Position numbers: made by a program
In this document: in pieces, positions 1 to 3,000 of the stretch
How the letters are laid out: every line of letters starts with the position of its first letter
Position numbering within the stretch: position 1 is the stretch's first letter
NCBI RefSeq assembly: GCF_003334405.1
Contig: NZ_QOWM01000006.1
DNA from: Escherichia coli
GTDB taxonomy: Bacteria; Pseudomonadota; Gammaproteobacteria; Enterobacterales; Enterobacteriaceae
Reading direction: 5' to 3' (one strand)
DNA: 64,000 nucleotides

Positions 1-3000
1 CGCGAGGCATCGTCTTAACGAGGCACCGAGGCGTCGCATTCTTCAGATGGTTCAACCCTTAAGTTAGCGCTTATGGGATCACTCCCCGCCGTTGCTCTTA
101 CTCGGATTCGTAAGCCGTGAAAACAGCAACCTCCGTCTGGCCAGTTCGGATGTGAACCTCACAGAGGTCTTTTCTCGTTACCAGCGCCGCCACTACGGCG
201 GTGATACAGATGACGATCAGGGCGACAATCATCGCCTTATGCTGCTTCATTGCTCTCTTCTCCTTGACCTTACGGTCAGTAAGAGGCACTCTACATGTGT
301 TCAGCATATAGGAGGCCTCGGGTTGATGGTAAAATATCACTCGGGGCTTTTCTCTATCTGCCGTTCAGCTAATGCCTGAGACAGACAGCCTCAAGCACCC
401 GCCGCTATTATATCGCTCTCTTTAACCCATTTTGTTTTATCGATTCTAATCCTGAAGACGCCTCGCATTTTTGTGGCGTAATTTTTTAATGATTTAATTA
501 TTTAACTTTAATTTATCTCTTCATCGCAATTATTGACGACAAGCTGGATTATTTTTGAAATATTGGCCTAACAAGCATCGCCGACTGACAACAAATTAAT
601 TATTACTTTTCCTAATTAATCCCTCAGGAATCCTCACCTTAAGCTATGATTATCTAGGCTTAGGGTCACTCGTGAGCGCTTACAGCCGTCAAAAACGCAT
701 CTCACCGCTGATGGCGCAAATTCTTCAATAGCTCGTAAAAAACGAATTATTCCTACACTATAATCTGGTTTTAACGATGATTCGTGCGGGGTAAAATAGT
801 AAAAACGATCTATTCACCTGAAAGAGAAATAAAAAGTGAAACATCTGCATCGATTCTTTAGCAGTGATGCCTCGGGAGGCATTATTCTTATCATTGCCGC
901 TATCCTGGCGATGATTATGGCCAACAGCGGCGCAACCAGTGGATGGTATCACGACTTTCTGGAGACGCCGGTTCAGCTCCGGGTTGGTTCACTCGAAATC
1001 AACAAAAACATGCTGTTATGGATAAATGACGCGCTGATGGCGGTATTTTTCCTGTTAGTCGGTCTGGAAGTTAAACGTGAACTGATGCAAGGATCGCTAG
1101 CCAGCTTACGCCAGGCCGCATTTCCAGTTATCGCCGCTATTGGTGGGATGATTGTGCCGGCATTACTCTATCTGGCTTTTAACTATGCCGATCCGATTAC
1201 CCGCGAAGGGTGGGCGATCCCGGCGGCTACTGACATTGCTTTTGCACTTGGTGTACTGGCGCTGTTGGGAAGTCGTGTTCCGTTAGCGCTGAAGATCTTT
1301 TTGATGGCTCTGGCTATTATCGACGATCTTGGGGCCATCATTATCATCGCATTGTTCTACACTAATGACTTATCGATGGCCTCTCTTGGCGTCGCGGCTG
1401 TAGCAATTGCGGTACTCGCGGTATTGAATCTGTGTGGTGTACGCCGCACGGGCGTCTATATTCTTGTTGGCGTGGTGTTGTGGACTGCGGTGTTGAAATC
1501 GGGGGTTCACGCAACTCTGGCGGGGGTAATTGTCGGCTTCTTTATTCCTTTGAAAGAGAAGCATGGGCGTTCTCCAGCGAAGCGACTGGAGCATGTGTTG
1601 CACCCGTGGGTGGCGTATCTGATTTTGCCGCTGTTTGCATTTGCTAATGCTGGCGTTTCACTGCAAGGCGTCACGCTGGATGGCTTGACCTCCATTCTGC
1701 CATTGGGGATCATCGCTGGCTTGCTGATTGGCAAACCGCTGGGGATTAGTCTGTTCTGCTGGTTGGCGCTGCGTTTGAAACTGGCGCATCTGCCTGAGGG
1801 AACGACTTATCAGCAAATTATGGTGGTGGGGATCCTGTGCGGTATCGGTTTTACTATGTCTATCTTTATTGCCAGCCTGGCCTTTGGTAGCGTAGATCCA
1901 GAACTGATTAACTGGGCGAAACTCGGTATCCTGGTCGGTTCTATCTCTTCGGCGGTAATTGGATACAGCTGGTTACGCGTTCGTTTGCGTCCATCAGTTT
2001 GACAGGACGGTTTACCGGGGAGCCATAAACGGCTCCCTTTTCATTGTTATCAGGGAGAGAAATGAGCATGTCTCATATCAATTACAACCACTTGTATTAC
2101 TTCTGGCATGTCTATAAAGAAGGTTCCGTGGTTGGCGCAGCGGAGGCGCTTTATTTGACACCACAAACCATTACCGGACAGATCCGGGCTCTGGAAGAGC
2201 GCCTGCAAGGCAAATTATTTAAGCGCAAGGGACGTGGTCTCGAACCCAGCGAGCTGGGAGAACTGGTCTATCGCTATGCCGATAAAATGTTCACCTTAAG
2301 CCAGGAAATGCTGGATATTGTGAACTATCGCAAAGAATCCAATTTATTGTTTGACGTTGGCGTGGCTGATGCACTTTCCAAACGCCTGGTCAGTAGCGTG
2401 CTGAATGCTGCAGTGGTAGAAGGCGAGCCGATTCATCTTCGCTGCTTCGAATCCACCCACGAAATGCTACTGGAGCAATTAAGCCAGCATAAACTGGATA
2501 TGATCATTTCCGACTGTCCGATAGACTCTACGCAGCAGGAAGGCCTGTTCTCCGTGAGAATTGGCGAATGTGGCGTGAGTTTCTGGTGTACAAATCCACC
2601 ACCAGAAAAACCGTTCCCGGCTTGTCTGGAAGAACGGCGACTTTTGATTCCTGGGCGACGTTCAATGTTAGGGCGCAAATTGCTTAACTGGTTTAACTCC
2701 CAGGGATTAAACGTAGAAATCCTCGGCGAGTTTGATGATGCCGCGTTGATGAAAGCTTTTGGTGCAATGCACAATGCAATCTTCGTTGCCCCAACGCTTT
2801 ATGCATATGACTTTTATGCCGATAAAACTGTCGTAGAAATTGGTCGCGTCGAGAATGTGATGGAAGAGTACCATGCTATTTTTGCTGAGCGGATGATTCA
2901 GCACCCGGCGGTACAGCGAATCTGCAATACGGATTATTCTGCGCTTTTTAGTCCAGCGGCGCGTTAATCGGCAGCTCCCCCAAAGTTAAAGTGGAGGAGA

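Follow-up and report, generated by a model that had tools for sequence, protein, structure and literature searches.

hokC/mokC/sokC at the edge of an Escherichia coli contig: a type I toxin-antitoxin locus probably in the IS186-interrupted state of K-12

Two described type I toxin-antitoxin systems stand closest to the locus considered here: hok/sok of plasmid R1 and hokC/mokC/sokC of the Escherichia coli K-12 chromosome. In plasmid R1, mok and hok are read in different frames, and the two ends of the toxin mRNA are known to pair, the 5'-terminal tac element with a 3' fold-back element (fbi). The K-12 locus, its copy of the insertion sequence (IS) IS186 and the proposed loss of its fold-back element have been described since the 1990s. 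The subject of this report is the hokC/mokC/sokC locus at the edge of a 64,000-nucleotide (nt) stretch of E. coli DNA (NCBI RefSeq assembly GCF_003334405.1, contig NZ_QOWM01000006.1), the whole of which is called the window. Very probably this copy is in the IS186-interrupted state known from K-12, in which the toxin and antisense genes are intact and the 3' control elements have been separated from them.

Published work on K-12 gives the frame for what such a state might mean. There hokC (also called gef) is still transcribed under the control of its antisense RNA, and IS186 is believed to disrupt both fbi and processing (PMC3562002). Double-stranded RNA (dsRNA) of mokC and sokC has been captured from living cells, and loss of RNase III in rnc mutants stabilises the toxin mRNA (PMC7373196). 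In a CRISPR interference (CRISPRi) screen of MG1655, knock-down of sokC was strongly deleterious, and the authors suggest that hokC may still function (bioRxiv 10.1101/2020.03.04.975888). Loci free of the insertion are also on record, ECOR24 being the example in the literature. As for the element itself, its target motif is GGGG(N6/N7)CCCC, with insertion reported in both orientations and hot spots in the lon promoter, fimA and menC (Lee et al. 2016, PMC5009759).

The resemblance to K-12 is close. The window matches the K-12 arrangement of hokC (gef), mokC (orf69), sokC (sof) and IS186A (b4412/b0018/b4413; MG1655 15387-17010) in the orientation of IS186, in the junction and in its 22-bp distance from the toxin gene. 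Window positions 1-767 and MG1655 16654-17420 show 0 mismatches, and the first 2347 window bases, collinear from MG1655 coordinate 16654, show 8. The annotated MG1655 genes hokC (16751-16903), mokC (16751-16960) and sokC (16952-17010) thereby fall at window 98-250, 98-307 and 299-357. The window is nevertheless not K-12 itself: further along it is 98.5-99.7% identical, and it carries about 4 kb (espX1 and a fimbrial remnant) where K-12 has only IS1A, so that its source appears to be a K-12-like natural strain.

The identity of the genes themselves is confirmed, far beyond chance, as a chromosomal hokC/mokC/sokC type I toxin-antitoxin locus, in agreement with the initial annotation, which had named hokC/mokC and by implication sokC. 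On the minus strand, 98-250 forms a 50-codon open reading frame (ORF) with the product MKQHKAMIVALIVICITAVVAALVTRKDLCEVHIRTGQTEVAVFTAYESE. This product matches Pfam HOK_GEF PF01848 over model positions 1-42 of 42 (E=8e-24); NCBIfam Hok-family models also match it, under their curated cut-offs (46.8 versus 73 bits). The HokC protein, WP_000809168.1, is identical between IS-bearing and IS-free genomes. Translation of mokC (98-307, minus strand) gives a 69-aa product in the same frame and with the same stop codon as hokC; mokC is thus an N-terminal in-frame extension of hokC, spanning the hokC start as mok-type ORFs of the hok/sok family do. The overlapping mok frame noted initially is therefore present, and it is not a separate frame. 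The range first given for the locus, 98-353, takes in both ORFs; left outside it are the mRNA 5' end (400), the hokC promoter -10 (407-412), the final 4 nt of sokC and, at 1-75, the end of IS186.

Upstream of the hokC start, the Rfam model RF01794 ("sok") aligns over its whole length with minus-strand positions 400..248 and scores 118 bits (E=5e-28, against a gathering score of 59). Despite the name "sok antitoxin", this model covers the sense strand of the hokC mRNA, between the mRNA 5' end and the hokC AUG, and the fold that it encodes is the tac-ucb one. The strand on which sokC is annotated in K-12 (window 299-357 plus, against 248-400 minus for the model) gives no match to it. Because RF01794 sits on the hokC-mRNA strand, it describes the hok leader, and strand calls taken from it could mislabel the antitoxin.

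Both promoters were taken from sequence reading and alignment, and the sokC start at 299 from the K-12 annotation; a consensus promoter/terminator scanner run on the window called neither the hokC nor the sokC promoter. The hokC/mokC promoter has a perfect TATAAT (412-407, minus strand) 6 nt ahead of the mRNA start at 400, without a good -35, an arrangement of -10 and mRNA start that recurs at homologous loci. On the plus strand, the sokC promoter consists of a -35 TTGACC (264-269), a 17-nt spacer and a -10 CACTCT (287-292). Plasmid sok promoters, in which the -10 reads TAnnCT, align with it by position. The CACTCT is common to every hokC allele examined and is not a lesion of the window copy.

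Folded in silico, sokC RNA opens with a single-stranded 5' tail of 12 nt, which is complementary to the region around the mokC start; a long hairpin and then a U-rich tail follow (-21.6 kcal/mol, z=-4.3). Across window 76-420, a single nucleotide polymorphism (SNP) separates this copy from IS-free alleles, an A at position 313 in place of G; since it falls both in the SokC tail and in its complement, pairing is kept. The ORFs, the leader, the hokC promoter and the sokC gene with its promoter are all intact and essentially identical to those of IS-free alleles. A published cluster of p19-captured mokC/sokC dsRNA covers window 307-675 (MG1655 16,960-17,328), reaching upstream past the start of the hokC mRNA by about 275 nt; its reach implies that sense and antisense transcription overlap beyond the annotated sokC.

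What distinguishes the window copy lies on the 3' side of hokC, at the very start of the window. The window holds a single exact match to the 22-nt terminal inverted repeat of IS186 (IS4 family), CATAAGCGCTAACTTAAGGGTT, at minus-strand positions 54-75, where chance would give 0. IS186 ends 22 bp beyond the hokC stop, a distance that agrees with the figure in the literature, and in gene terms it lies downstream (3') of hokC; the MG1655 annotation of IS186A ends at the base equivalent to window 78. The initial annotation had judged that the window starts too close to the locus for an IS to be seen; in fact the IS186 end (1-75), its inverted repeat and the duplication at 76-85 are all visible. 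In comparison loci L001 and L002, the complete element is 1339 bp long, with two inverted repeats and a 10-bp duplication, GGATCACTCC, on both sides; of its two copies, the window has the right one, and the left one would lie past the IS, outside the window. An IS186/IS421-family transposase (gene insL) lies directly to the left in genomes that match the first 840 bases of the window, and the element would likewise be complete to the left of position 1.

The empty site in strain NWU_4 (L003) makes clear what was hit. It reads GGCGGGGA-TCAC-TCCCCGCC, a perfect 8-bp GC hairpin 10 nt past the hokC stop, and the target of IS186 is its loop: the core GGGG-ATCACT-CCCC fits GGGG(N6/N7)CCCC exactly, and the 10-bp duplication comprises the N6 core with 2 nt on each side. 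The insertion splits the hairpin, with its 3' arm now beyond IS186 (local fold -18.5 kcal/mol intact versus -8.8 in the window), and pushes fbi and the terminator about 1.35 kb away, both outside the window. A second IS186 end or a further GGGG(N6)CCCC site was looked for within the window, and none was found. The hokC site resembles the reported IS186 hot spots in having the exact motif and insertions in both orientations; it differs in that its duplication is 10 bp and its target belongs to the structure of a toxin mRNA rather than to a promoter or coding sequence.

Set against IS-free hokC loci such as that of NWU_4, the window copy has the same toxin protein, leader, sokC and promoters save for the SNP at 313. 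Between hokC and dnaJ, IS-free loci retain an intact GC hairpin, fbi and the terminator, and folding predicts tac-fbi end-pairing for them; the window copy does not keep these elements and is predicted to be unable to form that pairing. With plasmid R1 hok/sok it shares a Hok/Gef toxin, an upstream mok-type ORF, an antisense gene over the mok start, a tac/ucb leader and an aligned sok promoter, and the architecture of the R1 3' untranslated region is that of IS-free hokC. It differs from R1 in that mokC is in frame with hokC, in that the R1 3' hairpin GGGC-GCAG-GCCC is no IS186 target, and in being chromosomal and without fbi, hairpin and terminator; compared with plasmid loci generally, the sokC -10 is CACTCT versus TAnnCT and the -35 TTGACC is better. 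Two features of the hok/sok family are thus missing from the window copy: an fbi contiguous with the gene, and a GC-rich 3' hairpin followed by a terminator. The locus is thus a member of the family by descent, disrupted rather than intact.

The initial annotation had named disrupted fold-back elements or a disrupted sok promoter as what would refute its reading. The first is what was found, fbi being displaced by IS186; the second was not, since the sok promoter and mok leader carry no damage and stand one base (313) from IS-free hokC loci. Its statement that K-12 hokC is reported to be inactivated by a nearby IS186 agrees with the literature, and its view that the activity state cannot be judged gives way here: the state is largely judgeable and equals that of K-12, with the fold-back element displaced.

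RNA folding indicates what the displacement may do to the message. Measured from its conserved 5' end to a terminator that it shares with dnaJ, the IS-free hokC mRNA is 402 nt long. In its minimum free energy fold (-173.2 kcal/mol, z=-7.3), nt 1-12 (tac) pair with nt 352-364 (fbi, which reads GGGTGCGTTGAAG on the plus strand) at probabilities of 0.94-1.00. The same order of stop, GC hairpin, fbi and terminator is found at five intact hok loci, the four besides hokC being an excised plasmid paralogue, an R1-type plasmid, a Klebsiella plasmid and an Atlantibacter plasmid; across intact loci, the best 3' partner of the mRNA 5' end lies 47-55 nt past the stop. Tac and fbi covary, as GGGUGC/GCACCC in the hokC group and GGCGC/GCGCC in the R1 group. 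L010, L012 and L008 served as references. Two further candidates were dropped, L006 for a leader removed by IS150 and L007 for a rearranged one. The former (L006 1-520, on a plasmid of E. coli WGS1363) is an R1-type hok whose promoter, tac and ucb have been removed by IS150, and so another IS-mediated hok disruption; the leader of L007, on a Klebsiella plasmid, is likewise non-homologous.

The window transcript was folded from 400 down to 1 and in a 644-nt version reading further into IS186. In both predicted folds end-pairing is gone: tac pairs instead with nt 52-58 (ucb-like) at probabilities of 0.82-1.0, and nt 82-118 fold into a hairpin that covers the mokC start. The same fold is obtained for an IS-free mRNA cut back to 334 nt, and it is the Rfam consensus structure. 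Mean unpaired probabilities in the mokC and hokC initiation regions gave no simple shift toward opening; in these models the relevant change appears to be the switch of partner together with formation of the target hairpin.

These models can be assembled into a proposed mode of behaviour. The mRNA of an IS-free locus would have its 5' end locked onto fbi, whereas the window transcript, obliged to read into IS186, would be born in the processed, activated fold. With the fbi lock and the protective 3' hairpin gone, no stable inert mRNA reservoir could form, so that delayed killing of the post-segregational type would be lost, and each transcript would at once be open to SokC and RNase III. Judging from R1 biology and the K-12 literature, the toxin is probably still expressible once SokC has been removed.

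Several points weigh against this picture. The IS186 portion inside the window is 75 nt long, and the full element is deduced from genomes identical over the first 840 bases. The CRISPRi source is a preprint, and dCas9 placed on a 55-bp antisense gene also covers the mokC 5' region. Where the K-12-type transcript ends is uncertain, the secondary literature disagreeing between about 644 nt and about 200 bp past the stop; a scan of IS186 for a terminator near the reported ~644-nt end found none, and the sole consensus intrinsic terminator for hokC read-through in IS186 lies at about mRNA nt 880-905 (L002 2157-2176, hokC-sense strand). A duplex-only shuffle control of tac-fbi pairing was weak for hokC alone, 69 of 1000 shuffles being as good (1-48 of 1000 at the other loci). 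Furthermore, the IS186 end (window ~20-33) offers the mRNA 5' end a wobble-rich pseudo-partner, CGCCUCGGUGCCUC (-16.8 kcal/mol, 73/1000), which does not compete in the full-length folds. Given the weak per-locus duplex test and this pseudo-partner, the case for tac-fbi pairing rests on the full-length folds, positional conservation and covariation.

The strongest competing explanation is that the insertion left a dead relic, in which toxin and antisense RNA have both lost all activity. The literature does call K-12 hokC "likely inactive" owing to the insertion 22 bp downstream, and fbi, the 3' hairpin and the terminator are indeed lost. Yet every coding and promoter element is intact and one base from IS-free alleles, the HokC protein is the same with and without the insertion, and K-12 shows mokC/sokC dsRNA, RNase III-dependent decay of the toxin mRNA and a deleterious effect of sokC knock-down. 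The published K-12 data suggest a locus whose transcription continues, whose mRNA pairs with SokC and whose toxicity may persist, and a dead relic seems unlikely. A locus that is unlocked, dependent on SokC and devoid of a reservoir is favoured in this analysis.

A fully functional hok/sok module, with a latent mRNA pool, 3' processing and delayed activation, has far less to recommend it. Complete hokC, mokC, sokC and leader would be expected of such a module, but none of fbi, the processing-stop hairpin and the terminator is contiguous with the gene, and the predicted fold of the window transcript has no end-pairing; the sequence appears to exclude it, and we consider it highly improbable. 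Equally improbable is that window 1-75 represents a solo IS186 end or a truncated remnant: only 75 nt are visible and no transposase gene lies within the window, yet L001 and L002 share the junction and carry the complete element with both inverted repeats and both duplication copies, the matching dnaJ-side junction is found in up to 828 genomes, and even a solo end would have the same effect on hokC, since fbi would still be displaced or deleted.

Over 5426 complete E. coli genomes, the hokC site is uninterrupted in 3815 (70%), most of the others having IS186 there, and the dnaJ-side junction is found in the window/K-12 orientation in up to 828 and in the opposite orientation in up to 940; the three classes exceed 5426 by 157, and since a few junctions of plasmid paralogues align too, each of the two IS counts is an upper bound. 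Counts from the hokC-side junction were rejected as inflated by hokE and plasmid-hok junctions at 86-89% identity. In strain 1070/13 (L005), the target and duplication are identical and IS186 is flipped, which means at least two independent insertions at hokC. Nor is hokC the only member affected: the equivalent hairpins of hokE (GGGG-ATTGCT-CCCC) and of the hok gene on plasmid pFBEc02 (GGGG-ATCTCT-CCCC) also hold IS186, so that each of the three is an exact IS186 target occupied with a 10-bp duplication. Hairpins of R1-type, Klebsiella and Atlantibacter loci do not fit the motif. On the chromosome of E. coli CUPS TF 6/1_01 (L009 1-2724), IS186-hokE-IS186-hokE lie in tandem; the two hokE units share 95% identity across 449 nt, with two residues differing, and each has IS186 in its 3' hairpin.

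Table 1. Coordinates of features in the window, in the IS-free hokC mRNA and in comparison loci
Feature	Sequence	Position	Strand	Basis or remark
IS186 right-hand end, last 75 nt	window	1..75	+	same sequence as the end of MG1655 IS186A
Target-site duplication GGATCACTCC, right copy	window	76..85	.	both copies in L001/L002, single copy in L003
GC hairpin 5' arm left over, GGCGGGGA in mRNA sense	window	83..90	-	L003 empty-site comparison
hokC toxin ORF, 50 aa	window	98..250	-	Pfam HOK_GEF; K-12 b4412
mokC ORF, 69 aa	window	98..307	-	K-12 b0018; translation
sokC promoter	window	264..292	+	sequence reading and alignment to plasmid sok promoters
sokC antisense RNA	window	299..357	+	K-12 b4413; fold
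hokC mRNA 5' leader: tac 389-400, ucb-like partner 343-349, antisense-target hairpin ~283-319	window	248..400	-	Rfam RF01794, folds
hokC/mokC promoter -10 TATAAT	window	407..412	-	sequence reading; homologous loci
Fimbrial adhesin-like ORF	window	3005-3964	-	
Usher fragment, C-terminal	window	3977-5122	-	NCBIfam NF011763 positions 438-826 only
espX1, type III effector	window	5555-6676	-	RefSeq name; no NCBIfam match
hokC start	IS-free hokC mRNA	nt 151		
Stop	IS-free hokC mRNA	nt 301		
GC hairpin	IS-free hokC mRNA	nt 311-330		
fbi CUUCAACGCACCC	IS-free hokC mRNA	nt 352-364		
Terminator hairpin	IS-free hokC mRNA	from nt 378		
IS186-target hairpin site	L003	2994-3013		
IS186-target hairpin sites	L009	right junctions 698 and 2550		
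IS186-target hairpin site	L004	1237-2585		

Elsewhere in the window, the segment of about 4 kb at 3143-7193 that is absent from K-12, where only IS1A is found, is present in 3590 of the 5426 genomes, so that K-12 represents the deleted state. The other Rfam matches at gathering level, at 16194-16246 (+), 21422-21492 (+), 53393-53458 (-) and 62209-62308 (-), are ES003 small RNA, two naRNA4 (derived from repetitive extragenic palindromes) and a thiamine pyrophosphate (TPP) riboswitch, all of them expected for this region of E. coli.

The hokC/mokC/sokC::IS186 arrangement is already known, having been annotated and described for K-12, and only the recurrent targeting of hok 3' hairpins by IS186, with its frequency, is a mildly new angle. 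It carries a caution for annotation: a seemingly complete set of hok, mok and sok may be without the 3' RNA elements, located outside the ORFs, by which the mode of action of the system is defined. The published CRISPRi data fit a gene that is unlocked but still armed rather than a dead one. For the family as a whole, the 3' hairpin of the hokC clade is a perfect IS186 target, filled in about three of every ten complete E. coli genomes; the element occurs there in either orientation, and several paralogues are hit. Tentatively, IS186 might turn a latent-reservoir hokC into a permanently unlocked, SokC-dependent and still-lethal module, and might be a recurrent, possibly selected agent by which members of the hok family are rewired or disarmed.

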